Under the pieces are notes generated by a model. The model worked only from the letters and a program-made list of their open reading frames with translations. It was not told where the DNA came from and searched no databases. A DNA stretch of 63,533 nt, filler included, from Hausera hauseri (lineage: Eukaryota): the NCBI GenBank assembly GCA_046269625.1. It is 11 parts of 11 records of this genome, joined end to end, with 100 filler letters (N's around TTAATTAATTAA, not from the genome) between each part and the next. Parts side by side here need not be neighbours in the genome. Positions count along the whole stretch, not along the records: positions 21,592 to 28,058 come from JBJURY010097542.1; positions 28,159 to 34,119 come from JBJURY010162310.1; 9 more parts are not named here. One strand, 5' to 3'. Of the stretch, positions 617-45,982 are shown one piece after another. How positions within the stretch are numbered: position 1 is the first letter of the stretch; every line of letters begins with the position of its first letter. Position numbers and translations under genes: made by a program.

Positions 617-724
617 TATAAACAATGACGGTAAGTATATGATTAGGTGATATGGGTGCATGGTTTTCATCATTTTGTCCCAGTTTACCGAATCTTTCAT
701 TAACGTTTCGTTCTAATTGCTGCA

Positions 725-2728: not shown

Positions 2729-2765
2729 TAAACAAACTGCATAATTATCATTGACATCATTGTGA

Positions 2766-3788: not shown

Positions 3789-3795
3789 ATACAAC

Positions 3796-4102: not shown

Positions 4103-4152
4103 TCAGCTAGCTTTTTAACTATAAACAAACGTCGTCGTCGTACGATTTTCGA

Positions 4153-10216: not shown

Positions 10217-12930
10217 CTTAAGAAAAAGCCTGGCTCCAATGAGGAAATAGATTTAGAAGATCAAAAGATGCCGAAATGGTATCCTCCTCCACATTGGTTA
10301 AGACCGGAGATAAAAAAAGAAAGTAGAACGAATGTTAAAGGCCGACATAATTAAATCGAGCTACCGATCATGGTACTCCATATACTCATGATTAAGAAGA
10401 AAGGTACTACGAAGCACCCATTTTGTATCAATTATCGAGCGTTAAACACACTTATGATAAAAGATTCATTTCCACTACCATCGGAAAAAGAAGCCCTAGA
10501 TAGGCTTTCCGGAGCAAAATGGTTCACCACACTTGATCAACAGTCTGGATATTGGCATGTAGAGATAGAGGAAGAAGACCGCTATAAAACTGCGTTCAAA
10601 ATGCACTACGGTGTTTACGAATTCAACGTCATGCCATTCGGAATAACTACGGGACCTGCTATTTTTCCCGAATGATGAATAAGATGTTAATGGGACTAGA
10701 ACACGCGTTCGCATATCTGGACGACGTAATGGTTGCGTCCAAAGTGGAAGAAAAACATCTAAAGTACATTGAGGACATACTCATGGGGATAGAACAAGCC
10801 GAATTAAAATTGAATCTCAAGAAATGTAAATGGGCTCAAAACGCTGTGTCTTATCTCGGACATATAGTTGGAGAAGGAGGATAAAAGCCGTATAAATCAC
10901 TGTTGAGTAAGATATCATATTGTATGGAACTTCCAAATTCGAAAGAGTTAAGACATTGGTCAGGCTTGTGCGGATATTACGCCACTTATGTACCGGACAA
11001 TTCAAAAATAAATGCACTCTTGTATCGCTTACTTAAAGGGGATTAAATTAAAATGGACTGATGTTGAACAAAAGGCTTTCGACGAAAACATGAAAATCTT
11101 AACTAGCGAACCCGTTTTAAGATATCCTGATTTTAACCTACCGTTCATAATTAAAACGGATGCAAGCAAAGAAGGCATTGACTACGAGTTAGCTCAAAAG
11201 CGAGAAGAAAAAGAATCGGAACATCCGATTGCATACGGAGGAAGATCACTAAAGAAAGCTGAGAAGCATTATTCTGTTACAGAATTAGGAACGTTAGCTG
11301 TAAAAGAAGCTCTACGACACTTTAACGTATACGTCTACGGACAGAAGATTATAATTGTTACGGATCATAAAGAAGTTACAACATTTAAAGGCAGAGCAAA
11401 TAGTCCGACATGCAGACTCAACAGATGGATCAAAGAGATCTCACGATTTAATATTGAATTTCAGTACAAACCCGGATGCAAACATGTCTATGCCGATGCG
11501 TTATCAAGACTCAAAACCAAAACAAGCGCGATTACCATAATGGGAAAGCTCAGCTAGAAGAATGAGTGGATAGAAAACTGATTCTAACAATGGATAAAAC
11601 AATTAAAAATTCTACCAAACAAAAGAATGACAAAATTATACATTAAATCATCGAATTTGTTGGAAAAAATATAACGCCAAAGGGTCACCAACTACGAAAG
11701 CATTTGCAAAGACATGGTCATAAATACTGCGCAACAGGAGACACGAACTGCGGAAACGTATTGCATTATGAACGGAAAGGACGAAAATTAGTAGTCATAC
11801 CAAAAGGACTACGTACAGAAGTACTAATTGCCGAACACAACTCTTATTTAGCCGGACACGTCATGGAAGAATACATTAGAAAGAATATTAAAGAAGTATT
11901 ATTGGCCGAGCATATATATCGATGTAAAGAATTTGATGAATGCTTGTGAAGTATGCGCAACCAAACAGAAAAAGTAAAAACTATATTCCCGAACTTAAAC
12001 CAATAAACGTGCGGACAGACCAATGCAAGCAATGTCCATGGATATTGTAGGACCGTTACCTACAACTCACAAAAATAATAAGTATATTCTAACACGTGTA
12101 GATCAATTAACCCATTTTGTCGAGCTTATAGCATTAATGGACCATAAGGCCGAAACTCTAGCAGAAGCCGTAGTAAGGAAGATTATCTTTAGACACGGAC
12201 CTCCTGAACAAATTTTGACAGACCGAGAAAGAAACTTTACAAGTGAGTTCTCTGAGTAAATTACCAAAATATTCGAGATTGAACGATTAACCAAAACAAA
12301 CGATTACCATGCAACGGATTGGTTGAACGAATAAATGCAACAGTTATACGTATCTTATCCACCATGGCTAAGAAGGACCAGAAAGATTGGGACGAATTTT
12401 TAGAGGGCATATAGTTTGCCATAAACACTACACCACATCCTGCAACAGGATTTACTCCATTTATTGTGATGTGCGGCACAGAAGATGTAATACCCACGGA
12501 TTTAGGAATGATACCATATCAGTGAAAACGGAACAGTTAGAGCGAAACTTTGTTGAAGTATTACAGATGAGACTACATAAGTGTTGGGAAATATCCAAAG
12601 AATTATCTAGAGAATATCAAGAACAATTCTAAACGTAACACGACACGAATGCTAAATTACACGACCTAGAACAAGGGAATTGGATATATGTGCACTATCC
12701 AGTAGCGAAGAAAGTTCCATCTTTGAAACTTACCCGAACAGGCAGAGGACCATACGAAGTTATCAGAACCACGCCAGCTACAGTTTATATTAATGGAAAT
12801 GACAAGGAAGAAGTCGTATTAATACAAAGAGTGATTAGAACGGAAATAAGACCGAACAAACGCTATAATCTGCATTCGGACAGAGAGAATCCGAGACTAT
12901 CCAAGCAAGAAGGGAAAACGTCACCTATAG
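10217..12930 (+). pseudogene. Gypsy pol: reverse transcriptase, RNase H, integrase
   Basis: FTTLDQQSGYWHV, VMPFG, FAYLDDVM; KTDAS, YSVTELG, VTDHK, ADALSR; H..YLAGH, SMDIVGPLP, ILTD, NGLVERIN; GPY module; order RT-RH-IN; many stops. Confidence 0.95.
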
Positions 12931-12941: not shown

Positions 12942-14240
12942 ATGTCATATGTACAAATAGTTCTTGCCTTGTCATTAATCGCCTCGTATATGCCAAGCGT
13001 AAGATCAATAACCCTGACCGAGAAACGGCAATATGCACAAAGACGTAAGGATATGCAAAACTTGTAGTCACTTAGAGTATACGATATGGATTTGAGCAAA
13101 CCCTGTGCCTGGTTCAAGGCAAGCGAATTGGTTAAGAACCACGTAAAGTTTCAAATAATATTTATGAATAGGATTGGTGTCGAGATGAAGACGTGTGATT
13201 TTCCGTATGGAACCTATCAGAAATGTTGCGACTTAGATTTTGATTAAACGTATAGATATAAACTTTAAATGTTCTATTATAACCTGCACGGAGTCCAGGC
13301 CTACATAATTACCGAATTTGAAACAAAAATGTCCCAACGAGACGATGCGAACAAAGCCAAAACAGACAAAATAATCCTGAATACCAACCTAGAATACCGA
13401 CTCCTACATTTTAACATTATTGGGATCGAAAAGTACTTCCAGAACCATTGTATTCGAATTAAGATTAAAATAGAATTGCCAGGAGATAGGCAAACCTCCA
13501 TTCGGTTCATACCATCGAACGTTTCAATCCCATCCACAGAGTATTGTTATATTGCACGACGCCGATCTACTACGTTCTGTAGACTGCCGTTAGGACACGA
13601 TTACCAATTGCAACTTGATCTGTATAATACTTATCCAAAGGAACCAAGTACATATCTGAGAGGATACCTCCCAAGGGTTGAAATATAGAAACTTCCACTT
13701 CTAACAACTACGAGAAAACCGTCTAATATTCCGAGTACGACTATTGCCACTGCGATAATCACTTCGAGTGAAATACCCGAGCAAGAATTGAGGAGTATAC
13801 CAATTAAGGTATTGACGCAAAATAATAAAATTTTGTTTTATGCAGAAGAATTGATAAACTACGAAATTAAAATTGAATGCCGAACCTTGCACACTAATCA
13901 AATCGTAATTTTAAAAAACAATCGAAAAATCGAATGTAAATCTTTGCGGCCGCAACACGATTATGTGATCCGAATTACTGCCAAGGGTCGAAGACCTGAA
14001 ATTTTCACGGTGCGGACTCGTCATGACGAATCAAGAGCAACGCGATATAAAGACCTTAGTACCCGTAATGTGCTTACTACAAAAGGGCATAGTGAGGCAA
14101 ATAGTTTACCGATAATAACTATATTTGGTTTTTCAACTTTTATTCTTGTCATATTAACAGCGACGATTTTCTTAGTTTCCAAAAACTGTAATAAACAGAG
14201 TAAAAATCAACAGAGGAATAAACGGGAAAAGGGATCGTGA
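12942..14240 (+). pseudogene. Type I membrane protein (signal-like segment, three FN3-like repeats, S/T-rich linker, TM) in frame after integrase
   Basis: MSYVQIVLALSLIASYMPSVRS; repeats CCDLDFD*TYRYKL, FCRLPLGHDYQLQL, CKSLRPQHDYVIRITA; TTTRKPSNIPSTTIATAIITSS; TM IITIFGFSTFILVILTATIFLV. ORFs at 12690, 13269, 13788 and 14391 share one frame. Confidence 0.6.
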
Positions 14241-15618
14241 GACGGGCTTTATGATAGTATAACCTGACAATTACAATCAGACAGAGGAACTAAAGTAAAA
14301 GACACGTTTCCTGACGTTACCGGAATTACGAAACTACAACTTGCGAAAGGCAAAGATTTCCTAGAAATCCAAGAAGATATAAGCCACGGCTTGTATGGAT
14401 TTATTATAATCGGATTCAGAGTACATGAAATGCTAGTAAGGCTAGGGATTAGACAAGAGTGCATAGCTGGAATTCGTGAAGTAAAATGCGTCGTTTGTAA
14501 AACGCGTGGAAAACACCCTAATGAGGTAAAGAGGATATCAACTTCCCTTAGAGTCACGAGAATCACAGTTTAAGATGATGCTTGAAGCCATGAATGGCGA
14601 ACAATTTAGATTTCATAAGTTAATGATAGCAAACAAACGCACGAAACCAATAAGAGATATTTACATATCGCTACGATGGAAACACGAGTGGAAACTCAAA
14701 AACCCTACACAGAATGTAATCTCTGACAGTAATCCAAAAATCTTAATGCAGAAAATCCGTAAGGGGTTTAGTAAATACCCGATATCTAGACATATTGAAC
14801 CCCAAGGGCATAATAATTTCCAAATAACCGTTCAAAACAGTCCAACCAAACCATTCAAACCAGAAGGACCAAATAAGTACAACCAACCCTTAATCGATCG
14901 AGTCTAAATTAAGTACAGACCGGCTGAAGAATTACGAAGACGAAAAAAGACGAAACCATCATTCTTTGAGTATATAAGCAAGAAGAAAACCAAGACAAAT
15001 AAAAACTGTGCTGAAGGGATAAAACCGTCCACTAGCAGCCTAATGCTGACGGCCAAAAAAGAAATGATAGAATCCAAGGACAAACTGAAAACGCCAGAAC
15101 ACGGAAAAACTACCGGACGAGGAACAGAAACGATCAGTTGCGGATCACTTAGAACGGAAGTAAACATTCTCCGAAGAAATTGGGAACAAACAGCCCCTAT
15201 CGTGGTAACCGAGTTCGGTCAGATTAAAGAATACGCCCAAATGTTGGTTATGGCCGAATATTATAGCAGAGGAAAAATTAAAGAAGCCATGTTTTATGTC
15301 ACCACCGTTCCTAGAAGAATCGTAAGTGGAAACGGATATGCCCGAGAGGATGTAACCATTGGCCGATACTTAGCCCCAATATCCCAGTCGAAAAATGGTA
15401 CCAATAGATTAACCATCCTAGTAGATACCCAAGTCCTAGTACGACTTAAAAGGCAGTACAAGAAAACCGGAATACCCGACTTAGACAAACAAGAAATCGT
15501 TGAATGGACGTTAGTCACCGTGTCAGATGACCCTAAGAAAAGTTCTATAGACCCCAAACATAAAGGATATACGGATATCTATACCAAGATAAAAAGGGAC
15601 TGGTATTCGAACGAATAG
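14241..15618 (+). pseudogene. Uncharacterised accessory coding region of the retroelement
   Basis: Co-oriented ORFs 14391-14573, 14575-14907 and 15043-15618 (last two in one frame) with the same A-rich codon style as pol; no family recognised. Confidence 0.5.
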
Positions 15619-16565: not shown

Positions 16566-19500
16566 TGCTGTCAGCCATGCATGAAATTTTGGAATGATAC
16601 CCCCAATGGTTTTTTAAGCACATGAAAGATTCTGGAATGTGGGAATGCTAGCCTTAAAGGTTGGCGACCTATGAGAGACAATTTATACAAATACTTGTAA
16701 TTGAGCGATGCGCGAGAGTCTGTAATGAGAGCCCCATTGGTTGATTAGCCATGCACGAGATTCTTTAACGATAACCTCAGTGGATATTGAGCCATGCGAA
16801 AGTTTCTGGAATGATAGACCTAATGGTTGATGAAACATGCTCCACAATCTGGAATGATAGTTCCATTGGTTGTAATGCATGCGCCAGATACTGGAATGAC
16901 AGCTGAAGTTGATAGTGAGCCATTACTCCACATTTTGGAATGATAGCTCCATTGGTTGTAAGGTATGCGCCTAAAGTGAGCCATGCGCGATATTCTGGAA
17001 TGATAGTCCCAATGGTAAGATAAGATAAGGTCTCAACCACTGTTGAGAAATTTTGTGGGTGAGCCATGCGCGAGATTATCGATTGCTATCAACCATGCAT
17101 GAAATTTTTAATCATACCCCTAATGGTTGGTTGGCCTTGTTCCGCATTCTTGAATTACATTCCCAATGGTTGTTTTCTTGCGAGAGATCCCAGCATGATA
17201 ACCACAAAGGTTGGATATCCGTGCGAGAGAACATAGGTAGTTTAATTGGTTGATTAGCCATGCGCGATATACTGGAATTATAGCAGCCCATCCGGAATGA
17301 TACCCCCAATGGATTTGTAAGAATATAAAAGATTCTGTAATGTGGAAATGATAGCCTTAAAAATTGGCAAGCCATGAGAGGCAATCTAAACAGATATTTG
17401 TAATTGAGCCATGCGCGAGAGTCTGTAATGAGAGCCCCATTGGTTGATTAGCCATGCACGACATTCGGGAACGATAGTCCCAATGGTAAGATAAGATGAG
17501 GTCTCAACCACGGTTGAGAAATATTGTCTGTTTACATTTCTGCCCTGCTTGATGAGAAATGTGTGAGATTATGGAAAGGTTGCCCAAGTGCTTACTGAGT
17601 CATTCACGAGATCCTGGAATGGTAGCCCCAATAGATGGTGAGTCATGCGCAAGATTCTAGAATGATAGCCCCATTTGTGGGTGATGCATGCGCGAGATTA
17701 TCGATTGCTATCAGCCATGCATGAAATTTTAGAATGATACCCCCCAATGGTTTTTTAAGCATATAAAAGATGCTGGAATGTGGAAATGATAGCCTTAAAG
17801 GTTGGCAAGCTATGAGAGACAATCTAGACAGATATTTGTAATTGAGCCATGCGCGAGAGTCTGTAATGAGAGCCCCATTTGTTGATTAGCCATGCACGAG
17901 ATTCTTTAATGATAGCCTTAGTGGGCCATGCGAAAGTTTCTGGAATGATAGACCCAATGGTTGATGAGTCTTTCACGAGATTCTGGAATGATAGCCCCAG
18001 TGGATGGTGAGCCATGTGCGAATTTCTGGAATGATAATCCCAATGGTTTTGTAAGCATATAAAAGATTCAGGAATGGGATTGCCCTTAAAGGTTGGCGAG
18101 CTATGATAGACAATTTAGACCAATATTTGTAATTGTTAGTGAGCCATGCGCGAGAGTCTGTAATGATATGGTTGATTGGGTGATGCATGCGCGAGATTCT
18201 AGAATGATAGCCCCATTTGTGGGTGATCCATGCGCGAGATTGTCGATTGCTGTCAGCCATGCATGAAATTTTGGAATGATACCCCCAATGGTTTTTTAAG
18301 CACATGAAAGATTCTGGAATGTGGAAATGATAGCCTTAAAGGTTGGAGAGCTATGAGAGACAATCTAGACAGATATTTGTAATTGAGCCATGCGCGAGAG
18401 TCTGTAATGAGAGCGCTACTGGTTGATTTAGCCTTGCACGAGATTCTTTGAACGATAGCCTCAGTGGATAGTGAGCCATGCGAAAGTTTCTGGAATGATA
18501 GACCCAATGGTTGATAAGACATACTCCACATTCTGGAATGATAGACCCAGTGGTTGTAACGCATGCGCGAGATACTGGAATGATAGTCCGAATGGTAAGA
18601 TAAGAATAAGGTGTTTATTCATCCAGGGTTGAGAAATATTGTCTGTTTACATTTATGCCCTGGTTGGTGAGAAATGTGTGAGATTCCGAAATGGTAGCCC
18701 CAGTGCTTGCTGAGTCATTCGCGAGATTCTGGAATGAGAGCTCCAGTGGATGGTGAGCAATGTGCGAAATTCTGGAATGATAGTCCTTATGGTTTTGTAA
18801 GCATATAAAAGATTCTGGAATGTGGGAATGATAGCCCTTAAAGGTTGGCGAGCTATGAGAGATAATTTAATAAAATTTAATGAAATTTTAGAATGATACC
18901 CCCCAATGGTTTTTTAAGCATATAAAAGATTCTGAAATGTGGGAATGATAGCCTTAAAGGTTGACAAGCTATGAGAGACAATCTAGACAGATATTTGTAA
19001 TTAAGCCATGCGCGAGAGTCTGTAATGAGAGCCCCATTGGTTGATTAGCCATGCACGAGATTCTGGAACGATAGCCGCAGTGGATAGTGAGCCATTACTC
19101 CACATTTTGGAATGATAGCTCCATTGGTTGTAAGGTATGCGCCTAAAGTGGATGGTGAGCCATGCGCGATATTCTGGAATGATAGTCCCAATGGTAAGAT
19201 AAGATAAGGTCTCAACCACTGTTGAGAAATATTGTCTGTTTACATGTATGCCCTGCTTAGTGAGAAATGTGTGAGATTCCGGAATGGATGCCCCAGTGCT
19301 TGCTGTGTCTTTCACGAGATTCTGAAATGATAGCGAGCCATGCGAAAGTTTCTGGAATGATAGTATTAGTTTATGGTAAGCCATGCGCGAAATTCTGGAA
19401 TGATAGACCCGATGGTAAGATAAGATAAGGTCTTAACCAGGGTTGAGAAATATTGTCTGTTTACATTTATGCCCTGGTTAGTGAGAAATGTGTGAGATTC

Positions 19501-21491
19501 CGGAATGGTAGCCCCAGTACTTTCTGAGTCATACACGAGAGTCTGGTATGATAGCCCCAATAGATAAGTGAGCCATGCGCAAGATTCTAGAATGATAGTC
19601 CCATTCGTGGGCGATCCATGCGCGAGATTATCGATTGCTATCAACCATGCATGAAATTTTGGAATGATACCCCCGATGGTTTTTTAAGCATATGAAAGAT
19701 TCTGGAATGTGTAAATGATAACCTTAAAGGTTGGCAAGCTATGAGAGACAATCTAGACATATATTTGTAATTGAGCCATGCGCGAGAGTCTGTAATGAGA
19801 GCCCCACTGGTTGATTAGCCATGCACGAGATCTTGGAATGATAGCCATAGTGGTAGGTGAGCATGCACGAGACTCTCGATTGATAGCCAAAACTGTTGGT
19901 TTCACGCATTGCTCCCCATTCACGCAGGCTCAACAACCACTGGGTTGGCTAACCATCTATTGATGCCATCATTCCAGAATCTCGTGCATGTCTCACCAAT
20001 CACTGGTGCTATCATTACATGTAGCACATGGCTCACGATTCCTTTTAGCTATCAATCCAGAATTTAGGGTATGTCTCACCATCCGTATGGGCTATCATTC
20101 CAAAATCCCGTTCATGGCTAATCAACCAGTGTGGTTATCATTCCAGAACCTCGTGCATGAATCATTCCAAAATTTCACGCATAGTTTACCATCCACGCAC
20201 GGCTCAACAACCACTAGGGCTATCATTCCTGTATCTCGTGCATGCTTCAAAACCATTGGTGCTTTATAAACCATTGGGGCTAAAATTCCAGAATCACGCG
20301 CATGTCTCACAACAAGCATGGCTATCATTTCAGAATTTCATGCATGGGTCACCAACTGTTAGGGCTATCAATCGAAAAATCAATCGCATGGAACACTAAA
20401 CAACTGAGGCTATCATTCTAGAATGTTTCACATGGCTAACCAACCATTGGAGCTATCATTATAAAATTTAACGCATTCCTCACCATCCACGCACGGCTCA
20501 ACAACCACTGGAGATATCATTCCAGAATCTCGTGCATGGCTCACCAACCATTGGGGCTATCGTTAAAGAATATCGCGAACGGCTCACCAACCATTAATGA
20601 TATCATTCCAGCATCTCGTAAAAGGCCCATCAACCGTTAGGGCTATCATTCTAGAATTTTGCGTATGGTTCGCCAACCACTTTAGCTATCATTCCAGTTT
20701 CTCACGAATGTCTTACAACCATTGGTGCTATCATTCCAGAATGTGGAAAGTCCCATTCCAGAACGTCGTGCATGGATCACCAACAGTTGGGGCTAATAGT
20801 CCAGAATCTCTCGCTCACCAACCAATGGAGGTATCATTCCTAAATTTTACGAATTGATCACCATCTACGTACGGCTGAACAACCACTGGTGCTATCATTC
20901 CAGAATTGGCTTACCAACTATTGATTCCATCATCATAGAATTGGCTTAAAACTATTGATGCTATAATTCCAGAATGTAGGGAATGTCTCACCATCCATTG
21001 GAGCTATCATTCCAGATGCTTTCGCATGGCACAGTATTCACTGAGGCTATCGTACCAGAATCTGCTCATGATTCAGCAAGCATTGCCACTATCATCTCAG
21101 AATCTTGCGCATGGATCACCCACTGATCATTTCAGAATCAGACGCATGTCTCATGAACCAATGCAGATATAGATCCACATTCTCACACATGTTTCACCAA
21201 CCAATGAGGCAATCATTCCGGAAACTCCCGCATGACACTCCAAGCATTGGCTCTATTATTCCTGTTTATCATGCATGGCTCATCAACCGTTGAGGCCAAC
21301 GGAATCTCACTCATATCTCAACAACCATTGGTTCTATCATTCTAGAATGTCTCGCATGGCTCTCTAACCACTGGGGCTATCATTCTAGAATCTCACGCAT
21401 GGCTCACCAACTATTGGAGTTATCAATCTAGAATCTCGCTCATGCTACGTTTGTGCGAAATTTTTTAACGATAGTCTTAATGGTTGGTGAG
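16566..21491. repeat. Satellite array, ~43-bp monomer with higher-order structure
   Basis: Consensus approximately CCATTGGGGCTATCATTCCAGAATCTCGCGCATGGCTCACCAA; runs in reverse orientation 16566 to ~19900, forward ~19900-21445, then reverses again. Confidence 0.92.
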
Positions 21492-21591: not shown

Positions 21592-24314
21592 TATCCGGCT
21601 AAATATGAATCATGTTCGGCCATGAATACTTCGATACGCAATCCTTTCGGAATAACTATTAGTCTTCTTCCTTTTCGTTCGTAATATAAGATATTATCTT
21701 GATTCGATGCGCAATATTTATGTCCGTGTTTCTGTAGGTGTTTTTTAAGTTGTCGTCTTTTTGGCATTTTGTCGTTTTGTACAAACTCGATGATTTGTTG
21801 TATAATTTTGTCTTTAGCTTGCTCAGCTGTAATTCTAATCGTCTTATCCAATATTAGCGTTCTTTGTCGTTCGATCAGTTTTTCAAGTTGTGGTTTCTTT
21901 ATTTTGGTGATTGCGCTCGTTTTTGTCTTTAATCTTGACAATGCGTCGGGGTCGATATGTTTGTTGCCCGGTTTATATCGAAATTCGATGTTATATCGTG
22001 AGATTTCCTAAATCCAACGATTTAGTCTGCATTTTGGGTTATTAGCTCTTCCTTTCAATGTCGTAACTGCTTTATGGTCGGTTACTATTATAATCTTCTG
22101 TCCATAGACATAGACGTTAAAATGTCGAAGTGCTTCCTTAACAGCTAGCGTTTCTAGTTCGGTAACTGAATAATTCTTTTCTGCTTTCTTCTCCGAGCGT
22201 CCTCCATAGGCTATAGGATGTTCCAGCTCTTTATCTTCCCGTTTTTGAGCTAATTCATATCCTATGCCCTCTTTACTTGCATCTGTTTTAATGATGAATG
22301 GTAAGTTAAAATCAGGGTATCTTATAACCGGTTCGCTTGTTAGGATTTTTTTCATTTCATCGAATGCTTTTTGCTCAACGTCTGTCCATCTTCATTTAGT
22401 TCCTTTCTTGAGTAGGCGGTATAGTGGTGCGTTAATCTTCGAGTTATCTGGTACATAAGTGGCATAATACCCACATAGGCCTAACCAATGTCTTAACTCC
22501 TTTTGATTCTGTGGTTCGATACAATCAGATATTTTATTTAACAAAGATTTGTCCGGCCTCGATCCTCCTTCTCCTACTATATGTCCGAGGTATGATACTG
22601 CGTTCTGTGCCCATTTGCATTTCTTTGGATTCAGTTTTAAACCTACTTGTTCCAATCGTATGAGCGTGTTTTCAATGTCTTTTAAGTGTTCGTCTTCTAT
22701 TTTCGATGCTATCATCACGTCGTCTAAGTACGCGAATGCATGGTCCAATCCCATAAACATTTTTTTCATCATTCTCGTAAAAATAGCTGGTCCTATGGTG
22801 ATGCCAAAAGGCATAACATTAAATTTGTATACGCCATCGTGTGTCATAAACGCTCTCTTATATCGGTCGTCCTCTTCGATTTCTACCTGCCAGTATCCCG
22901 ATTGCAAGTCGAGAGTGGTTAACCATTTTTCTCCTGATAGTCTGTCTAAAGCTTCTTTTACCGATGGTAGGGGAAACGAATCCTTCATCATAAGAGTATT
23001 TAATGCTGGATAGTCTATACAAAATCGATGTTTTGTGGTTTCTTTCTTTTTAACCATAAGTATGGGTGAATACCATGATCGGTAGCTCGGCCGAATTATA
23101 TTGGCTTTCAACATTCGCTCTACTTCCTTAGTTATTTTTAGTCTCAATGAATGTGGAGGTGGATACCACTTTGGCATTTTCTGTTCCTGTAGATCGATTT
23201 CATCGTTCAAGCCTGGTTTCTTCCTTAATGGAATTGTTAGTTTCAAGGTCTTAGCTCTACCTATATCTTCCTCGTATTGTGCAATTATCGAACTGTGTTT
23301 ACATAATAATTCGTAAAACCTGCAGTATGCCTCAGGAGAAAATTTGGTTTCGACGTAAGGTGGAAACTCTGCGTACTTGTATGGTTTTTCTTCTATTGTT
23401 ATTGCTGATACCCTGCAACTGTGACCTAACGTAGTGTTATCGTGCAATTTCACTGTTGTTAGTGCATTGTTCACTAATCTAATGGGTATCCGTCCCGTTA
23501 CTACCCTACAGAGAATATTACTAAGCATGAGATTTGGGTCGATATCCTCTTGAGGTTCAAAATATACGGGCAAATCGTGATCTTGACGAATCTGTGCAAA
23601 AATTATCATTTCAGTCCTGGACGGAATGTCCTCGTCTACTGGAATCCATACTTCGACTGACTTCCTTTCCTTTATTACTTTTGTCCCTTTTATTGATTCG
23701 AGCTCGAGTAATTTTTTGCTATGCAAATCGATTGCTAAACCTGGTATCTGTTTTAATACTTCACAACCCAGTACTAAATCATCTGTTAATTGGTCCATTA
23801 GGGCAAATTCGTGTTGAATTGCTTGACCCATTATATAGACGATAGGAGTCAATTTGAATTTTGGCTTCGATATTTGTCCAAATGCTCCTACACTACCCGG
23901 ATCCGATGACAACGGCGTACACAATTGTTCCCGTAATGTGGTGGGTATCGATTCGTACTTTATAAACGATTTTTCCGATCCCGTGTCAATTAAGGCATAC
24001 ACTTCCCAATCTTCGATGTGTATTTTAGCGAAGGGCCTCCCTTCTACCACTGTTCCGACACCATTGGTTGTCATTTTTGGTTGTTTTATAGTAGAGACTC
24101 TATGCCCGTTTATTGTTATTTCTGGCGACGAAACGATATTTTCTCTTAGTTGTCCTAGTTCTGCGCTTGGATATAAATTATTATTTGCCATTTCGCTGCT
24201 ACGGCTGTCGATGAGCGATTCTTGGCGTAGTGAACCTGGGATTGAGCATAGTTTCGGATTCTCCCAGATCGTTGATTTCGATTCTATATGACGAGGTATC
24301 CTTTTGGAATACAA
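21592..24314 (-). pseudogene. Gypsy pol: aspartic protease, RT, RNase H, integrase N-terminus
   Basis: VYALIDTGSEKSFI; HRFCIDY, LTTLDLQSGYWQV, VMPFG, FAYLDDVM; KTDAS, YSVTELE, VTDHK; EHDSYLAG. Confidence 0.95.
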
Positions 24315-24338
24315 TATCCCGTGGTCGTTTTGTGTTGG

Positions 24339-26555
24339 TCATTGATTGCTGACGTTCATTTTCCATAATACTCCGTATTGTTTCGTTTTTTCATATGGAT
24401 CTTCATAATTAATAGGTTTTTGATCGATTTTGGACTTACTTGATGCGATTGACGTACGGTCAAAGTCTTCATATATTGGTGCTGTTGGTGGTATTATGGG
24501 TAATGGCACGTTGATCACTGAATAAATTTTGCGCATCTTGTTCCTGGAACTTCCTTTTCCTCCCTTAGGCTCATCATCATCTGAATTATCCCTTCGTGTT
24601 GTTGTTTTCTTCGTTTTCCGTCTATACAGAATCGAGGGCCTTCCTCGTCGTTTACGATTGTAATATCCAACGTGGCGTTCTATGTCATTTCTACATCGGT
24701 TTTCTTCATAAGCTTTAAGCATTTTGCCAAAGGGTGTGATAATTTCGGTCAAGATTTTGCAAGAAAATTTTGTTAAGGTGAATATTTCATACCCATTTAT
24801 AATGGCTTGGATTATTGCCTTAACTAACTGGATTAGAAAGTAAATAGCTAAGAATCCAGATGCGGCCTGTCTGAAAATTAGAAATCTTTCCCAGATCTTA
24901 TATAGTATTTCTGAGGTTACTCTTTGATAGTGATTAGCACCTAATAGCGATTCCCATTTTGTTTGAAAGCGAGTATTATCTACAACCATCGACATGGCCC
25001 GATTTAGTTCATAAGTTCTTTGTCGCGGAAATGCTAGGAACTGTCTAAAGGCTTCTATGTCCTTCGGTCTATAAATTCCTTTATTGGTTGTATCTTCGAA
25101 TTTTTCTTCCGATAGTCCTTTTATTAGGTTGGTTCCAGTTAGCTTGCTTGGGGCTGTAGCGGCGCCTCCATTGGGCAAGCTTATCCAGTCTGTTCCACTA
25201 CGGCGAAACATAGGTTCACCCAGACTCGTTTTTCATTCCTTCAGTATTGTCGGTTCCGTCGAGTTGGCGAACAGTACCCTGGTAAGAGGCATCGCTAGCC
25301 TTGGCATATTTTCGTAGATAACTGGTAATTCCTGCATACATCTATTTTCCTCTACATTGATCGGTACGTCTCTTTTCTCGCACTCGTAAGTTAATAGAAC
25401 TTCCCCAGTAACCCGTCCAATGACACCTTCTTTCATTAGTACAATTGGTGACGCCAATTCCGGGTTGGCACAAATTAAAGCTAGTTTGGTTCTCATGACT
25501 TCAGTGTCTAATCTGCAGTCATTCATTAACATCTTGTGGTATAGTTCTGCTATTCCGGTTTGTCAATTATAATAAAAGTAATCATCCTGGTTCTTGAGGT
25601 AATCTTCAATCCGCACGTCTTGTGTTTTCAAATCGTACGTTTTCATGTTAATTTCAGTTTCCGCTACGAAGAATGCTTCGTAGTTGGTGGAGTACATCAT
25701 TAAGTCGCAACGTGTTAACATATCTTTCGGAATGAATTTTAATCCATGTGTATACGACATCAATATCGTTGGTGTAGGCTGTTCTATTACATCTTCCCTC
25801 GATCTCGTATAAGTATGTAATTTATTTGTATACCGTTTTTCGGTCGTTTTATTAAACTTTATCTCCTTGATCCTAATAAAATAGCATTCTCTCTTCAAAG
25901 GTGGACTTCATACGATAACTGAACTTTGGAACGTACATGCGCCATCCTGAATGTGACATTTTTGATTCTCGGTAAATAGTTTAGTAACGCTATGGGACAT
26001 TGCTTTTAGATATCTTAATTTGGTTTTGAAAAAATCTACGACTACTATTCCTCCTTCCTTTCCTTTTCCGGTATCGTATTAGGCTCCGACACAATAGCCT
26101 GTGTGCATGTTTAATTTTCCTACTGCCACTTTGTAGGCTCTAATTATTTTCCCTCCTTATGCTTCTAACTCCATGCCGTTCCAAACCATTTAACCAGTTA
26201 ACCGGGCTCCTAAACAATGCTGCCTATCTACGTTCATCGGAATTAATGGTGTAGTTGGTTTGATTATTGAAGAATNNNNNNNNNNGAATGACCGTGCGTG
26301 TTACCACAATGAAATACGCTGCGAGATCTTCGTATCATGCATTCTATTGCCTCCATTGCGATTAGTTCTCGTTGTTGATATAATATATATTTCCCTTCCA
26401 CTGTCTCGAGCTTGTGGGGTCGTGCGTCTTCACATGTTTCTAAGTCCATCAAAGAATATTTCTGACCCACTTTGAATTTATCGCAATCATATACAGTAAC
26501 TGCTCCCATCTGCTTTACCAACATCATTACTGTCAGTAAGTTGATTAACCAGTTG
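24339..26555 (-). pseudogene. Chuvirus-like (class III) envelope fusion glycoprotein
   Basis: Hydrophobic leader, then VTVYDC...YSL...C, LYQ...ECMIRRSRSVFHCG..GH; CRL..EV..TKLAL..ANP....M.EG..G...GEV...Y.C...CMQELPV...PLTRVL; GIY...D......LAFP; W..F..F..AASG TM ...IINGY. This order matches chuviral G proteins and their retroelement-captured homologues as I recall them. Confidence 0.8.
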
Positions 26556-27245
26556 TATTCGTTTCCTTTGTTTGGTATAATATTTCGCATCATATCCTCT
26601 AGATTATTGGTCCTTTTGTATTGTCTTCTTTTTCGAATAACTTAGTCCATTTTATTTCTTTTGGTATTCTTCTTGCGGCTTTACTTGCTAACCCGATTGT
26701 CTTGTCGAATTCATTTTTCCGAAGAGGGTTAGATCTTACTGCTAGATATATCAAGACTTTCCTCAATTCTTCTATTGTATTGTATATCATAATTCTGTTG
26801 CTTACTGCTTCGTCAGGGAGGGTGCTTTTAGTTCATTTAAATCGCGACGTTTTCATCGTCCTAGCTATATTATATATTAGTCTTTCTTTCTCGGTCAGTA
26901 TGTCGCCTTGGAGTCCGGTATAATTAACTATCCTAATCAGGTCTTTCATTGGTTCGATTATTTCTTCATTATCTGAACTCGAAGTTGGTACCGATAGCTG
27001 CCTTAATTCCCTAATAAGGTCTGCATTATAATCACTTTTTTTATTTTTCTCGGTCTTCCGACCGGTCATTTCGGCTTCGTCGGGAGTAAGGTTTCACTTA
27101 GAGGAACTAAGTCTTTATCGTATTGTGGGTTGTCATTATCCGTTTGTAAGTATTCGAAATACATTGCAGCGTCCTGAATTCCCATCATTTTTCCAACGCA
27201 GTGCTCTATATGCGCCTTCCTTATGGCTTCATCTTTGGTTTGCTC

Positions 27246-27470
27246 ACTGACGATTATTGCAATTATTCGATTTTCCTCGAGGGGTATGATCCCTACATCT
27301 ACTAGGGCTTCTAGCTCATCTAATATCCTACTTCTGAAATAAAGTCGGTAATTAACTCCTTCTCTACTGTTCTTATTAATTATTTGTTTTCTTATATCCG
27401 TGACGGTGATACAGGTAGTAAATTCAAATTCCTCATAGTCCATCCTTTCTGTTGATACTTTTACTTTCAT
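27246..27470 (-). CDS. Ubiquitin-like domain within the retroelement N-terminal region
   Basis: MKVKV...TVTDIRKQI...YRLYFRSRILDELEALVDVGI...IIAIIV (other copies YRxYFRGRILDD...L.DVGI) parallels ubiquitin QRLIFAGKQLED.RTLSDYNI; no terminal GG. Confidence 0.7.
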
Positions 27471-28414
27471 TTCGGTTTCTGGTTTATTTTTCAATAATTT
27501 GGCATATTCTCTTATCAGAAGCTTAGGCACGGTGCTGTACGCGGTGTTTGCACTAGATATTTTGGTCAAAGTTGGAATCAGTTTTCTTAACCTATCTTCA
27601 CTTATATTTATTTTTAACATACTGCTTAATTCTTCTTCGGCTCTTATAGGATTGAGTAACATTTGCACGTTAAATTTCGTCTCCTGAGTACCAATAGGTG
27701 ACTCATAAATTTGTATCGGAGTTCTTTGACTTTTCTCGTTTAGACCTTGAAGGTATTCATCCCATTCGACGTCGTTTTCTGTATTAGGCAACTCATAGTT
27801 CGCTAATGCCGCGTGCCCTACTTGGACGATTTCGCGTAACTCTCTTAACTGTGGCTGCAATACTTTCATAATGGATACCCTAAATCCATCTCCATTTTCG
27901 CATGCTTGCTGTATCAAGGTTATTGATCGGCACATTTCCTCCGGTTGTATCATAGCTTTTTCCTCATAATTGGTTACTTCCGCAATTCTGTCTCTTTGCC
28001 ATCTTAGTATAAATTCTATTTTGTTGTTATTTTCGGATTCCGTAAGTAAATACTTATTNNNNNNNNNNNNNNNNNNNNNNNNNNNNNNNNNNNNNNNNNN
28101 NNTTAATTAATTAANNNNNNNNNNNNNNNNNNNNNNNNNNNNNNNNNNNNNNNNNNNNACCAAGGTAACATTCATCTTTTTTCATTGCGAATTTTAAACA
28201 TTCTGACGGTAATAATATCGAATATATATTCTACCCCTTGTTGCAAACAGGTGCTAATGATCTGCACGTGGATACCAACTACTTTCTCGATATAACCGGC
28301 AACGAACTCCCAATAACTCTAGCCGGATGTGCATTTATTTTCCCTCAACCAGGTTTACCGATGGCCGTTAGACGGTCTTTACAAAACTCTTGTTTTATAA
28401 TTGCATGGAGTAAT

Positions 28415-30780
28415 ATGTACAACGATCATGAGTGTGAGTTAGCAACCTTACAGAAGTTTCCGGATAATGCATCAACAGTGGGCAATTTTCCACCTAATGT
28501 TGCTATTGTAATTGAACATCAAGTTGTGCTAAGTCTGAAGGATGGCGAATGTAACTGTTTCCATTCGTTATTTCAAATTAATCGAATTACCAATACTCCG
28601 ACTGTAGCAAATCGTGATGTTGAAAAGGATATCGAAAAGGATAAACATAATATTTTTAGTCAACTAAATCTGTTACAAACAAAATCTAAAACCGTTGTTG
28701 CAACAACAGCTGTAGAAGTTGACTGGATACTTGAAGTAATGAAATACGCCAAAAAATATCCATAATTAATAATATGGAGATTGTTAAGCATTCTGTTCAC
28801 ATATTTTGTTTTTGGTTGTCAAAATTGCAATATGATTTAGATACCAATAGTTCCGTTAGATCACCACTGGCTGATTTGCCAAACTGTATTAAATTGTCAC
28901 CGAATGAATATGCTTTGGTTATTCTGTCGAACTTATGTAGTTTTTCAAGAACTTACTCAATACGTATTTCTTGCAAATTCGAAATGTTTCGATGGCCAAT
29001 TATAATTTAGGCGTCAAACCGAAACTGGATTGCAATCCTTTGTTTAATAAAATTGATGAATTGGTCGAACATATTCTTGTTACCTTTCAAAAAGTCGGTC
29101 AAATCTACAAGTATTAACAACACAACATGGGACAGCCTGTTGTATTTCAGTTTATGCGTTGGCAATTTGATTTTGGTTAATCCATTGGAGCCCGGCCAAA
29201 TCCCATCAAAACGCACGAAAAAAATCAGTGGCACGATTTTTAAAATTTGGTTGCAAGCGTGTCTAAAGTGTTTTCCTTGTCCGTCTCTTTGGAAAACGTT
29301 TCATAAACTGAGTCAGATATGGCGTCATCAGGAAGCGTTTATTAATCAGTGGAATAAAATTAATGTAGCATTTACATCGAAGCTTTTACCTCTGTTGTAC
29401 AATGGTAGTTTTCCGAAAATTCATCAAGTGGATTTTATAACCAGTGGAATGATACCTGCTGATCTTAGCGATGACTGCATTAAAGATTGCTGGTATCGGT
29501 TTTTACATCTAATCGGGAATCCTGTTGACATATGCTTTCAAAAATTAGCTTATTCGGACGATCTTATTGATAACAAGTCGAAGTAGTACTGAATAATTGA
29601 GTTCATTTTTATAGTATCATAGAAAACGAATATCACAGTTAAATAGTACAATCGTAACCAATAATTTGACCAACATATTTCATCGCGCCATGCATGGTTT
29701 ATCAATCATTATCGATTCGTTTCTCGGTCTTGAATTATCCGGATCTGGATTTATAATAAGTGATTTGCCTACAATTTAATTTGGCTGAAAGGAAAATTGT
29801 AGGTGACCATTCACCCGATAGTCCGCCTCCTGTTCCTATTCCTCAAAGACATAAATCAACAACAGTTGGATTAGAACAGACATCACCTCCGGAAATACGC
29901 AAACTTCATCAACATAAATTATTCAATATCGGTTAGTGAACTAATCGATTTCTGTGTCTACGCCTGACTTTCTTGACATTAGGCAAATCAAAGCCGGGAG
30001 TTGTATCGACACGTTTGCATTACGACGGCACTGATTCTGTGACTGGTCTAACCACCGGAGGAGAAGATCAACTAACGGTTGAACATCTTCCCGATCCTCA
30101 CCCTAGCAGACCCGAAGCAAATTCCATGCTAAAGTTATTCGGAGACTGGCTGTTCGAAGCTGCAATGGTCGGTGTCAGACAGAATTTAGATAGTGCGTTT
30201 TTGTGTAATTATAGTTTCCGAGGTTAATGTAATTTTTAGGCGTTTGTTGTAAGTATGATTGTATTTTTTGTTTTTGTTTCAGATGTTAGATTATTATAGT
30301 GTATCCGTTGTTTTCTCTGTTCATGTTTTGATTGGTCTTTATAACGATACATTGTCCATTTGTTCTAGATGCCGCCATCAGTAACAGATCGGAGAAAATC
30401 GAAGAAAAGAAATTTAACAGGGGTCGTGCCGAGGCTTGTGGTTCTCTTTGTCGAATTTTTCTGTACAGCCATCGAAATGAATTATCTCATGAGTACTTAA
30501 CCAAATTTTACATTGCTCTCTTTTATGGATTGGATATTGGAAAAGATACATCCAGCAGTCTGATCTTAAGTAGTATCATTTTCAATTATATTGACATTCT
30601 CAGAATTGGTTTGACCGGTGAATACTTTTGTTCCCAGACTCTTCAAATCTGTGGCATTTATACTGAAACAAAAGGAGGAATCATTTGACTCCCGAGGTGT
30701 TGCACATGAATCAATTGAGACGAGCAGCAATTACTCATCTGTTGTCGGTAGTCTGTTATTCAACATATTTCTGTTCGATT
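28415..30780 (+). pseudogene. RALGAPB: Ral GTPase-activating protein subunit beta-like, N-terminal part, disrupted
   Basis: EVDWILEVM, TWDSLL, IWLQACLKCFPCPSLWKT...WRH...QW, WYRFLHLIGNPVD, IFHRAMHG...DSFLG, RPEANSMLKLFGDWLFEAA, GRAEACGSLCRIF, in the order seen in RalGAP beta; stops and frameshifts at ~28765, ~29586, ~29780; short intron-like tracts near 30220-30370. Confidence 0.85.
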
Positions 30781-32487
30781 GATATAAAACCGTTATTATC
30801 CGTAAGCAATCAAGATGTGAAAGAAAGTTTTGTTGATATTCGGAAAAGTTTTGGTTAGGTTTTGTGATAATATAAGGGATGAAATGGATCCCGTAAACTT
30901 GCAACTTCTTGTTGGCTGTATTATTTCATTTCTTGAAAACTTGCAGCAAACTGATGAAATATTGGATTGCAAAGTTAGTAAATCGCCAGAAAATTCCCCA
31001 TCTGAAAAGACGGAGATTAAAATCAACAATGTTGTATATTGTCTCCCATCTCCGGCGTCAAGTAAGTCATATTGAGAATGTTTTGTTTAGAGTTAATGTT
31101 GCAGGTGTTGGTGGTACCGTTTTTTGTTTCCTTTTGCTTGTTGATGGTCCTGCTGTATGTATTTGATAACTGATTTTCATTTAGAACATCATGAAGAATG
31201 TTCTTCTTTTTCTTTAATTGGAATTGCGTTAAATTATTACTCTGATGTGTATGAAAATCCACATCCTGCACATTATCAGCTGTTTAACATTTTGGGCGTA
31301 CATGTTGTTATATGTTAAACTATATTCCTTTTAAAACAGAAACTTAATTTTATGTCTTGACAGCTGATTGTTTAAACATGTTACAAGCGATGGATCTCTG
31401 ATTTTGCATCACGCATGATTGACGAACGTACATGCACATAAAAAGTATACCGATCATATATTTACCCATCACGCATACGTCCATCGATTGTGATATGTTT
31501 CAATCCGATTCGATGACATTTTTTTGACGACTTCCGAGGATGGACTCTTACATTTTCCACTTTCCCATATTTCAGGATTGTTAGTAGATCGCGTCTCTAC
31601 CATCCCAACCCCAATCTCACTTGATGATTATAGAATAGAATTATCCATGAGATTTATTATAAAAGTTTATATAACAATAATCTCCTCCATTCTGGAAATG
31701 AGTCTTATTTTCCTTCTTTTCTGAATTTCCTGACTTTCTGTTGGCTGTATACTGAATTATCTTTGAATTAAATTTAAACGTTAATATCCGTTTCATTTCC
31801 TCCTCACAAGAATGAAGACTTATTCCAATTCGGACTGTCAGATAGTACTCCTGATGCTCTTACATTTGATATGCACCTCTACCCTGATTCCATTATTAGT
31901 GCACACACATGAGTCTGTGTGTTCATCCTCACATTTCCATGTCTCAACCTTTACATTTGGCATCTCCGCTATTCAACTGTTACCGGACAACTATTGGTTC
32001 ATTCGACAGATATTCCGACTTCCGATAAACCATATTCGATTCTTTTACTATTTGATAGTACTNNNNNNNNNNCTCGTCATTGCGAATATTTCCACGGGTC
32101 ACACACCGCCATTCATCTTTTCTCTGCAGAATCGGTTTTTTCTTCCCCTTCCCAGGGGCTAGAGAGCATTTCCTGGTATTGGCATGCTGGCCATTGAATT
32201 CCTCGTGTTCGAATTACTCAGACTACACGTCTTGCATACTTCAAGCACGCTTTCTATTGGCTGCAAGGGGAAGCGGTGGGTGTGGCAAAATCGACATTTT
32301 CATACTACTAAATATAAATTCTAAAATGTTTACTGCCCCAATCCGCGATATTTTTGCTTGCAACCGAACAAATTAACCGCGTTAAAGGAGGATGTAATGT
32401 ATATAATTTACCATACAATTATCCATTCTAATAACAGAAATAAGCTCTTCATATGTTCTTTTCCAAATGTCTAAATACTTTTCTCAG

Positions 32488-35172: not shown

Positions 35173-36625
35173 TCATTGTCCGTACGCCAAACTTTTATTC
35201 CGCCCCACCCACTTACGCTTATCATCATTGCATGATAAAGCGACTTTTGTATTGGTCACCGTATACAACTGGTGCTCAATCGATCGGATGATCGTTTGTG
35301 ACACAACATCTCTTGTTTGTTAACCTTCTTCATAGACACGGCGATAATCACCGTGTTTTGTTTTTGTCTGGACCAACTGAGCTCCTTTGGCACGCATTTT
35401 AGGTCGACAGTCAGTTAAAAGACTAACATTTTGGCCTTAGAAATACCCATTCCCGATACTGCACCCGACTTTCACTATCACTCTTGAAGCAGCCGATTTT
35501 GTTTGTGATGGCATTGCTGTACAATGGATGATTCTGTGGATAATTGGACGTGTCCAGTAATTTGTCTACTATCATTTGCTGCAGTAGTTATTCTCCATTG
35601 ACGTTTTCCAGTTCCAAGAAAAAACTATCTGTCACCGGGAATTATATTGATCCTGCCGCCGCCGCCGAACATTTGCCGGTAACGTGCCAAATCGCGATAC
35701 TGGAGTTCACACATTCGCAACTTGCTCAGGTCCAATACCATCTGTAAAATGTAACTTGGCCGGTCCAGAACGACTTCTCTTGTTAAAAGTACGGCAACCA
35801 ATCCATCGGCAATGGGCACTGACCACCGAAACTGCGTTTTAACCGTGTACGTGACCAACCGCTTTTTGCTATTGCATAGGTGTACATTGAGCTGCTTTTC
35901 AAATTCTCCACTGTTTTTGCGTACAGGAAATTGTTTCTCAGCTTGTAGTAGTCCTTTTCGAACTTTGTACAAGCTGCAGCTCGTTTCTCCGAATTTCCAT
36001 CTATGAACGCCTTGAATATAGGAGCCTGAACAAATCGGATTGCACGATGCAGCCGTGTGACGCGAACACCGAACTTTATATAGAACTGTAGCAGACGCCA
36101 ATGGATCACGTAATTCAGCTTCGGTTCATGCGTCATGAGCAGTTTCTTTACTTTTGAGCCTGGCGGACATTGGTTAAATGGCGCGACCGGTAAATCGTCC
36201 AAAACGTTATGCAGCTCATCTGGTACTACGAAATCGACCTCCATCAGGTATCCGACTGAGTCTGCCATCTGCTCGTGGTATGTTGACCATTATGTCGTCC
36301 AGATCTTGTTTGTCGACAACCCATTCGAATGAACCGTACGACAAGGGTTGCAAAAGCGCCCAGCCGTACAGGTTATTAATATCAATATACAGCAGTGATG
36401 TGGTATCGGTAGCATGGACCTGATGCTTGTTCACAAATGGCATGCCGCTGCGTATACCAACACCAAACAGCCGGTACATTTCTGGATCTTGCAGCAGCTC
36501 AATGTCTCGATCTAGTAACATTAGAGCTGACGCCAAACTCATTTCCGGTATGAAATAAAAGTTGAGTGGCTCCATCGTATCTTCAGCCAACGCTTTCGCC
36601 CGAAACGCCTGGACACATCAACGCC
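35173..36625 (-). pseudogene. Polinton protein-primed DNA polymerase B, C-terminal half
   Basis: GIRSG, LLYIDINNLYGWA, GYLMEVD, YYKLRNNFLYAKT, DRPSYI...LDLSKLRMCE, TDSFF, IRSIEHQLYTV..KVALS..DDKR...SLAYG. Confidence 0.92.
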
Positions 36626-44200: not shown

Positions 44201-45982
44201 GGTATATGCCAATATTGAGGCAATTCTACCACTGCACAACGCGTATTATCAAAAACACGTTCCAATCGCCGTTGGTATGTTGGTTGTCTCAATAAAAGCG
44301 GTCGGTCAGCCGCAATATTACGCCTTTCACGGCTGGAACTGTGTACGTGATTTCTTGCATCAGTTGGAAACAATAGTAGAAACGGAAATTGCGCCGTGGT
44401 ACAGTAGAAATAGCAATAAACCCTTGATGTGGATAGATGAATATGAACGCCTGACGTTTGCAGTCACAGAAGAATGTTATCTGTGCCACAAAATATTACC
44501 GTTTGACGCACTGGAATGGCTCATACCGGATCACGATCATTTTACTGCTCGATGTCTTGGAGCAGCATATAATTCATGCAATTTGGCAATGCGTGTGCGG
44601 CCAGTCCTACCGGTGATCTTTCATAATTTTTGAGGTTATGATTGTCATCATATATTGAAATGGGCCATTAATGGATTTTCCCACTGGGAACTGTCAGTAA
44701 TTTCAACAAGGGAGAAATACCTGTCCTTGTCAGCACACAAACCGGTTCCAGGTACGCTTTCTTGACTCATTGCAATTTCTCAATGAATCTCTAGGAAAGC
44801 TCGTAAATGCCTTGCCCGATGTGCCGATAACATTGACGCAATTTCATGCACATTGCGCGTAGCAAATGCATATTTCCGTATGACTTTGCAACATCATATG
44901 AGAGACTCCGAACAGCAGAGGAATTACCGCACGATGGACAGGTATCGCAGAGGATGAATACCGAAAAACAGAGGTGTTGGATATAACTCGGTTGTAGAAA
45001 CATGTTGGAGTACATGTACTTATTGGAGGACGTGTAAATATTAGCCGATGTGTTTCAGACATTTTGAGCTAAAGCGTTGGCTGAAGGTTGGCTGGAGCCA
45101 CTCCACTTTTATTCCATACCAGGAATGAGTTGGACGTCAGCTCTAATGTCGCTGGATCGAGATATTGAGCTGCTGCAAGGCCCGGAAATGTACCAGCTGT
45201 TTGATGTTGGTATTCGCGGCGGCATGACATTTGTCAACAAGCATCAGATCAGTGCTACCGATACCGCATCACTACCGCATATTGATATTAATAACCTGTA
45301 CGACTAGGCGCTTTCGCAACCCTTGCCGTACGGTTCATTCGAATGGATAATCGACAGACAAGATCTGGACGACATAATATTCAACCTACCACAAGCAGAC
45401 ATTGCAGGCTCAGTCGGATATATGATGGAGGTCGATCTCGAGGTACCAGATGAGCTGCATGACGTTTTGGACGATTTGACGGTTACACCATTAAATCAAT
45501 ATCTACCAGGCTCAAAAGTGAAGAAACTGTTCATGACGCATTAACCTTAGCTGAATTACGTGGTCCATTGGCGTCTGCTACATTTCTACATGCAGCTCGG
45601 TGTTCGCATTGCACAGCTGCATCATGCAATCTGATTCGGTCAGGCTGCCATATTCAAGGCGTACATAGATGGAAATTCGGAGAAACGAGCTCCAACTTGT
45701 ACAACGTTTGAAAATGACTATTATAAGCTGAAAAGCAATTCCCTGTACGGAAAAATAGTGTAGAATCTGAAAAGGCGGCTCATTATACGCCTATGCAACA
45801 GCGAAAAGCGGTTGGTTACGTATACCAGCAAAGCACCGTTTCTGCGGTCAATGCACATTGCCGATGGATTGGTTGCGATGATGTTAAACAGAGAAGTTCT
45901 AGACCGGCCAAGTTACATCGGACAAGTGGTATTGGATCTGAGCAAGTTGCGGATGTATGAGCTACAGTATCGCGATTTGGCA
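41265..45982 (+). mobile_element. Polinton fragment: subterminal repeats, small ORFs and PolB
   Basis: Repeats GACCCAGTTTCGGACACC/ATATTCGGACTCAC at 41265-41520, several short ORFs, then a long decayed PolB running to the contig end. Confidence 0.85.
43064..45982 (+). pseudogene. Polinton protein-primed DNA polymerase B
   Basis: YTEKGSG..., SFIPTP, VNVQNTDD..FLYSILA; VYANIE (ExoI); DHDHFTARCLGAAYNSCNL; VIFHNF*GYDCH (ExoII); FLDSLQFL; GIRGG; IDINNLY; KLKSNSLYGK; DRPSYIG. Confidence 0.92.

Follow-up and report, generated by a model that had tools for sequence, protein, structure and literature searches.

The question raised by this window, a 63,533-nt stretch of Hausera hauseri DNA (assembly GCA_046269625.1; spacers included), is whether a viral-type membrane fusion gene that lies directly ahead of the pol region of a Ty3/Gypsy retroelement was translated together with it. 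We consider it very probable that the window holds decayed copies of a Ty3/Gypsy element, likely from a planarian or other flatworm, in which a chuvirus-like fusion gene (G, the env of the element) stands in one frame with an upstream region, protease (PR), reverse transcriptase (RT) and RNase H (RH), and that the element likely encoded one gag-env-pol polyprotein of the kind known from the planarian Burro elements. The window is composed of 11 contigs of about 4-7 kb each, joined through N spacers with a six-frame stop linker; copies that adjoin in it need not be neighbours in the genome. The reference copy, A, occupies 21592-28058 on the minus strand, to which all features of copy A given below also belong, and both of its ends are contig ends. 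Copy B (46083-50366, plus strand) is 80% identical to A by blastn, extends from a ubiquitin-like domain to the start of RT and carries many frameshifts; about half of the synonymous sites are different between the two. Three further copies are designated C (10218-12900, plus strand), D (59253-63533, minus strand) and E (56279-59252, minus strand).

The gene ahead of pol has the layout of a viral glycoprotein. A predicted internal signal sequence (26501-26557), a hydrophobic stretch just ahead of the conserved start of G that recurs in copies A, B, D and E and in most of the relatives described below, is followed by a class III ectodomain of the chuvirus G and herpes gB type (24867-26500) and by a predicted transmembrane anchor (24798-24866), which was located by a hydropathy scan and forms a long helix in the structural model. 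Cleavage of the signal ahead of G would be expected. With X placed at the stops, G was matched by the Pfam family Monjiviricetes_fusion (PF24664) at E=8.4e-41 and 140 bits (cut-off 27), and the same family matched three separate open pieces of G at E values of 6e-9, 1e-13 and 9e-19. When a profile of the 65-sequence G family was compared with PDB, all 35 of the 35 rows returned were herpes gB (best E 0.0027, over one 74-residue stretch); a single-sequence PDB search with G gave nothing useful. The AlphaFold model of the ectodomain lies mostly at 60-93 on the predicted local distance difference test (pLDDT), and a Foldseek search of the predicted structures in BFVD placed chuviral G first (E 5e-22), followed by G of xinmo-, nyami- and bornaviruses and by gB. 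Nine of the ten cysteines of G are invariant among close relatives, and the ratio of nonsynonymous to synonymous substitution rates (dN/dS) in the ectodomain is 0.07 between A and B. By profile and predicted fold G classifies as a chuvirus-type class III fusogen, for which membrane fusion and trimer formation are predicted. The Pfam profile, the chuviral G structures and the gB-only PDB matches thus bear out an earlier reading made from this DNA alone (the sequence-only reading), which had placed a class III-like glycoprotein ahead of PR.

Two minus-strand open reading frames (ORFs) of copy A meet at the junction of env and pol. The last piece of G (24339-25232) lies in the same frame as the PR-RT segment (22392-24338), with a single TGA at 24339-24341 between the two. 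The separation by a single stop that had been proposed holds for these two pieces but not for G as a whole, which in copy A contains six further stops (codons starting at 26192, 26159, 26081, 25910, 25565 and 25235) and whose first 90 or so codons, on the far side of the N10 gap (26276-26285), are read in a different frame. The alignment agrees with the sequence-only reading that copy B reads through this position, having a sense codon where A has its TGA, and that B has an in-frame stop of its own at 49203-49205, where A is sense. Seven of the eight aligned stops of A are absent in B and seven of the eight of B are absent in A.

The stretch that leads from the cytoplasmic tail of G to the protease (24042-24797) forms one frame in copy A, with the stop at 24339-24341 inside it, and in the model of this linker pLDDT is mostly below 40. 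The sole indel between A and B from the transmembrane segment of G to PR is 18 nt long and keeps the frame. Between these two copies dN/dS is 0.23 over the 119 codons that lead from the anchor to the stop, and 0.19 over the 85 codons between the stop and PR; it ranges from 0.07 to 0.23 in all ten segments with data, against 0.65-1.75 in two shifted-frame controls. No methionine is common to A and B between the stop of A and PR. When 1848 contigs of the public run X1 were aligned to 23900-24900, no indel was present at 20% or more, and 20 of the 40 differences listed sit at third codon positions. The stop is not a base-calling error, since a 306-nt contig of X1 is identical to copy A across it; X1 is possibly the source of the window itself and hence does not provide independent support. 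The linker from G to the protease was coding sequence under purifying selection. Because it is constrained on both sides of the stop, is altered in length by the 18-nt indel only, holds no shared methionine and shows no frequent indel, the stop at 24339-24341 is to be regarded as private decay of copy A and not as the end of a gene.

The state of this junction across the family is taken from copy B and from relatives. A representative search gave 481 matches, the best 150 of which were listed, and we scanned 17 of these: all 14 listed matches of at least 1000 amino acids and three shorter ones. A single open chain that holds G and then protease was found in 11 of the 17, five of which also continue into RT, and in nine of the ten best matches; the G-to-PR stretch of the 11 is open over 124-384 residues. 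Taken with the constraint on both sides and the copy-specific stops, this upholds the proposal that the ancestor had no stop at the junction. Upstream in the same chain, capsid or CCHC motifs occur in P0007, P0011, P0021 and P0055. The others are arranged differently, with integrase (IN) then G in P0094 and DUF5641 then G (the BEL/Pao order) in P0049, both among the weaker matches, and G without protease in four. Among the matches listed, the best relative of copy A reaches 48% identity in RT and about 30% in G, RT scoring best on P0003 and P0006. G was absent from all 20 of the metagenome loci found with RT, which serve as rows of the tree considered below, and phage records and viral contigs gave no match to the element.

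These results bear on two other ways in which the arrangement might have come about. Env and pol could have been expressed separately, from a spliced RNA or an internal start, with the frame merely shared. Two ORFs share a frame by chance one time in three, and retroviruses and the errantiviruses of Drosophila do express env from a spliced RNA. The coding constraint on both sides of the stop of A, the lack of a shared methionine before PR and the 11 of 17 relatives that are open from G to PR all argue against separate expression, which we regard as very improbable. A chuvirus insertion that came by chance to lie beside a Gypsy pol, or a chimera of the assembly, might be suspected in an assembly that is fragmented and repeat-rich, the more so as the structural matches are to chuviral G. 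However, the same junction is present in two copies that are 20% apart, with constraint across it, and an X1 contig bridges the stop; moreover the closest relatives in sequence are retroelement polyproteins of the same order and not virus proteins. The linker constraint and the relatives of the same order refute this explanation, to which we attach practically no probability.

Several of the relatives have features of their own. P0003 is an intact env-pol polyprotein that NCBI lists under a Flavobacteriaceae metagenome-assembled genome, as a hypothetical protein; its likely source is a contig of animal DNA that was binned with a bacterial genome. Several tandem aspartic-protease domains lie between env and RT in P0002, P0004, P0007 and P0152, the last of which has six DTG motifs together with ankyrin repeats and C2H2 fingers.

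The pol region that follows the linker begins with an aspartic protease carrying the DTG motif (23745-24041; RVP E=2.3e-5). Between this and RT is an insert of 150 residues (23250-23699) in the place of the dUTPase-like region of Burro; it has no Pfam family and is homologous to the same stretch in four of the eight relatives tested (P0002, P0003, P0006 and P0152). The RT (22395-23249; RVT_1 E=2e-33) is of Ty3/Gypsy type, with Ty3 RT as its best PDB match (E=2e-49) ahead of foamy virus (4e-22) and gammaretroviral RT (1e-19). RNase H and the start of integrase (21592-22391; RT_RNaseH_2 E=1e-34) are cut by the contig end at 21592, at the very start of IN, and tblastn of the relatives reaches 21594. 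Further stops are found in this part of copy A at 22392-94 and 22008-10. Copy C, which consists of RT, RH and IN of the same lineage, matches A at 75% over 10218-11856 by blastn and has its env side beyond the contig end; it is the one copy in which the IN core is visible (rve E=1.8e-11). From the order PR-RT-RH-IN, the Ty3-type RT and RNase H, and the IN core of copy C, pol classifies as Ty3/Gypsy. The PR-RT-RH-IN succession given in the sequence-only reading is thus right as to the type of pol, but in copy A itself only the start of IN is present. A BEL/Pao element with a chuvirus G was considered and rejected, as pol is Gypsy and env does not lie 3' of IN.

The frame also continues on the other side of env. 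An open frame of 330 codons in copy A (27069-28058), cut by the contig end, has dN/dS of 0.13-0.23 against copies B, D and E; it matched no Pfam family, a single-sequence PDB search with it gave nothing useful, and neither the capsid profile nor the CCHC pattern matched anywhere in the window. Within it is a ubiquitin/SUMO-like domain (UBL; 27249-27473) in which no C-terminal di-glycine was seen. The equivalent in copy D is modelled as a beta-grasp (pLDDT 65-83), and all 50 PDB matches listed by Foldseek for the UBL model were ubiquitin, SUMO or UBL chains or complexes that contain them (best E 7e-5). The Atlas leads for the domain are 0.79-0.83, and a UBL profile from four relatives matched at this position in copies A, B, D and E only. 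A basic GRP motif (27045-27065), presumably AT-hook-like, comes next, is found also ahead of G in P0002, P0007, P0008, P0055 and P0152, and is followed in copy A by a frame break. Between it and the G signal is a helical spacer (26641-27036; dN/dS 0.15) in the place where relatives have a BCL2-like domain; it aligns colinearly with the Bcl-2-like part of P0055 and P0005, and this part in relatives scores Bcl-2 at E 0.001-0.2. The frame breaks of copy A in this region lie near 27040 and 26615.

Copies D and E extend the picture upstream, both matching A at about 66% by blastn (over 59253-61883 and 56279-57491, respectively). D comprises a long upstream region, the UBL, the spacer and G, within which it ends, and is in one frame from the UBL to the G signal with a single stop at 60937-60939; E runs from the upstream region to the start of G. 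Upstream of G the two contain about 1000 codons and no capsid, which suggests a giant ORF. As the frame continues upstream of env through the UBL, a gag-env-pol polyprotein is likely; the env-pol polyprotein envisaged in the sequence-only reading was correct in setting env in frame with PR, but it was incomplete. D and E are tandem partners, 89% identical across their shared part, and 56279-63533 (minus strand) is a head-to-tail duplication of about 4.4 kb, at whose junction, near 59253, the far-upstream region of E is joined in frame to the late part of D's G ectodomain, the anchor and pol having been dropped.

A number of points weigh against the polyprotein reading. There is no intact copy in the window, and no capsid, nucleocapsid, zinc knuckle, primer-binding site or long terminal repeat (LTR) was found in it, the contigs ending before the element does; the gag part is supplied by the relatives, which suggest that it would have stood at the head of the chain. 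The flatworm host is likewise suggested by similarity. In the Foldseek comparison of G with viral G the TM-scores are low, at 0.2-0.3, and the root-mean-square deviations high, as is to be expected of a monomer model that carries a disordered tail of 300 residues. A BCL2-like profile from four relatives gave no match in the window copies, the model of the spacer has pLDDT below 50, and no Bcl-2 appears in the 50 Foldseek rows mentioned above. The RT tree, whose 19 rows are copy A and the 18 of 24 phmmer stretches that exceed 180 residues, leaves copy A unplaced on a long branch; on this tree the env-before-pol label needs two changes, and it fits a single origin or more than one. Lastly, the stop at 26833-26835, inside the spacer and upstream of the G signal by about 280 nt, is one and the same codon at the corresponding site of A and of B, and is sense in D and E.

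This shared stop could have been programmed in the sub-lineage of A and B, with readthrough or bypass at a low rate, so that the output of env-pol, as a regulated unit, would be lower than that of the Gag side. The codon has been kept in both copies although about half of their synonymous sites differ, and there is constraint on both sides of it; in addition, a single ORF gives Gag and Pol at 1:1, a ratio that many retroelements avoid. On the other hand, the sense codons of D and E do not fit a programmed signal, nor does a position inside a predicted helical domain and not at a domain border. Parallel decay would produce a stop shared by A and B with a chance of roughly 5-12%, and that parallel stops do occur is seen from a second shared stop, between A and D inside G (25908-10), which has no counterpart in B. 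The chance of 5-12% and this second case favour parallel decay, and we hold a programmed stop to be improbable.

If the likely gag-env-pol polyprotein is taken as the product of the intact element, a course for its processing, budding and infectivity may be put forward from its topology and from known viral polyproteins that are processed by signal peptidase. The Gag side would be made in the cytosol. The internal signal would then carry the G ectodomain into the lumen of the endoplasmic reticulum, where signal peptidase would cut and leave the Gag side anchored in the membrane. The transmembrane helix of G would stop transfer, and Pol would emerge in the cytosol tethered to the tail of Env through about 290 mostly disordered residues, from which the protease of the element would then free RT, RH and IN. 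One more surface protein would arise from a second signal and anchor that follow IN. In this way Env would draw Pol to where budding takes place, and the particle would possess an envelope and be capable of fusing with other cells. The window copies are broken and would not perform these steps themselves. The biological question that follows is by what route a particle comes from a single ORF whose product is predicted to cross the membrane four times, and what role the protein after IN may have.

That protein is represented in copy C, which, judging by its pol, probably belongs to an env-first element. In frame after integrase, and with four stops, a predicted type I membrane protein (12957-14240, plus strand) comprises a predicted signal (12957-13001), a Thr/Ser-rich stalk, a weak FN3-like stretch (13851-13985; fn3 E=0.039 and 14.6 bits, under the cut-off of 25) and a predicted transmembrane segment (14103-14183). 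A signal and transmembrane pair after IN is present in all four relatives that extend past IN. Pairwise similarity of the ectodomains is weak (best E 4e-5, between two relatives, and 0.001-0.02 with copy C); alignment with the full-length relatives was scattered and unusable, and a single-sequence PDB search gave nothing useful. Further frames are seen on the contig of copy C at 14530-15618. It is possible, if on the whole unlikely, that the polyprotein encodes an entry machine in two parts: the class III fusogen ahead of pol and, after IN, a type I membrane protein, FN3-like and fast-evolving, that would be its receptor-binding partner. Both would be released from the product of a single ORF with four passages through the membrane; the analogy would be with herpesviruses, which have gB and separate attachment proteins. 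Were the post-IN protein an attachment protein, these elements would be invertebrate retroelements with entry functions split between two proteins. The literature searched holds no description of the post-IN protein or of the UBL/Bcl-2 cargo beyond PMC6431247, and the figures or supplements of further papers on Burro and on nematode endogenous retroviruses (NERV) may already treat the post-IN protein.

The remainder of the window contains other elements. An uninterrupted frame of 576 codons for a piggyBac-type transposase lies at 7271-9001 on the plus strand (DDE_Tnp_1_7 E=7e-66), and positions 1-4885 (plus strand) are by eye a decayed Polinton-like element with an integrase (rve E=4e-8) and chromodomain followed by capsid-like frames. 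Inverted pieces at 35685-36619 and 45047-45982, which are 84% identical, appear by eye to be fragments of a protein-primed DNA polymerase and have no matching Pfam family. A diverged 43-bp tandem satellite fills 16566-21491, with a flip of orientation near 19900. The intron-poor, broken RALGAPB-like sequence at 28169-31000 (plus strand; PF20412 E=1e-22) is possibly a retrocopy or pseudogene, and 51335-53354 (minus strand) holds another decayed Gypsy pol, not related to the first (RVT_1 E=9e-20).

Comparison with known systems places the element in company that has already been described. The sequence-only reading did not recognise the architecture; PMC6431247 and PMC13524379 show that it has been catalogued, which that reading had named beforehand as the outcome that would speak against its claim. 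Nor is capture of a chuvirus G mainly a matter of BEL/Pao, as it had supposed, since PMC13524379 describes 114 arthropod elements in which a chuvirus-like G adjoins gypsy pol. In PMC6431247, published in 2019, the planarian Burro/GYPSM1 elements are described with an in-frame env between gag and pol, following Ubi/SUMO-like and BCL2 domains. The window copies are like these giant planarian Gypsy elements (Burro1-4 and GYPSM1) in that env, which in Burro has mononegavirus-like matches, lies between the gag side and PR and shares their frame. They are also alike in the Ubi2/SUMO-like domain upstream, the BCL2 position between the UBL and env, the PR-RT insert and the long extra region before env, and decayed copies with stops and frameshifts are reported there in one planarian species. 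Unlike in Burro, as that paper describes it, Gag, CCHC knuckles, MATH, BIR, ankyrin and LTRs were not seen in the short contigs of the window; the upstream frames scanned contain none of the MATH, BIR, ankyrin or Smc cargo, and Burro exceeds 25 kb and has LTRs. The comparison with Burro is one by description, in which the BCL2-like and dUTPase-like identities of the window regions are positional, and the Burro section of PMC6431247 makes no mention of any membrane protein following IN.

PMC13524379 also describes GAG-ENV-POL errantiviruses (Gypsy) with an HSV/gB-type env (HSV, herpes simplex virus) in Platyhelminthes, Nematoda and Bryozoa, with which the window elements share a Ty3/Gypsy pol, a gB-type class III env and the position of env before pol. 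By eye, the layout of eight cysteines in domains I-II and the accompanying motifs are as in six Platyhelminthes_C1a rows of its supplement (Smed_errantivirus_1-6), but G of the window is only distantly like all six, which points to a separate family. The elements of that study are intact, and its main text, as far as it was searched, is silent on frame continuity, ubiquitin, Bcl and fibronectin. In NERV (Sacco et al. 2022, doi 10.1099/jgv.0.001739), as cited in PMC13524379, env and pol stand in reverse order, and by eye the Nematoda_C1 rows for domains I-II in the supplement are unlike G of the window. The chuvirus-type G of BEL/Pao and of canonical gag-pol-env Gypsy elements belongs to the same Pfam fusogen family, but env lies 3' of integrase there. 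NERV are said to have a continuous gag-env-pro-pol ORF. Judged by their sequences, the copies studied here are a decayed, divergent new family of the already known Burro-like gag-env-pol Gypsy elements. As an architecture they add little, an env in frame between gag and pol having been in print since 2019; what they contribute to the known systems is one more divergent family and a codon-level test of the env-to-protease linker as coding sequence.

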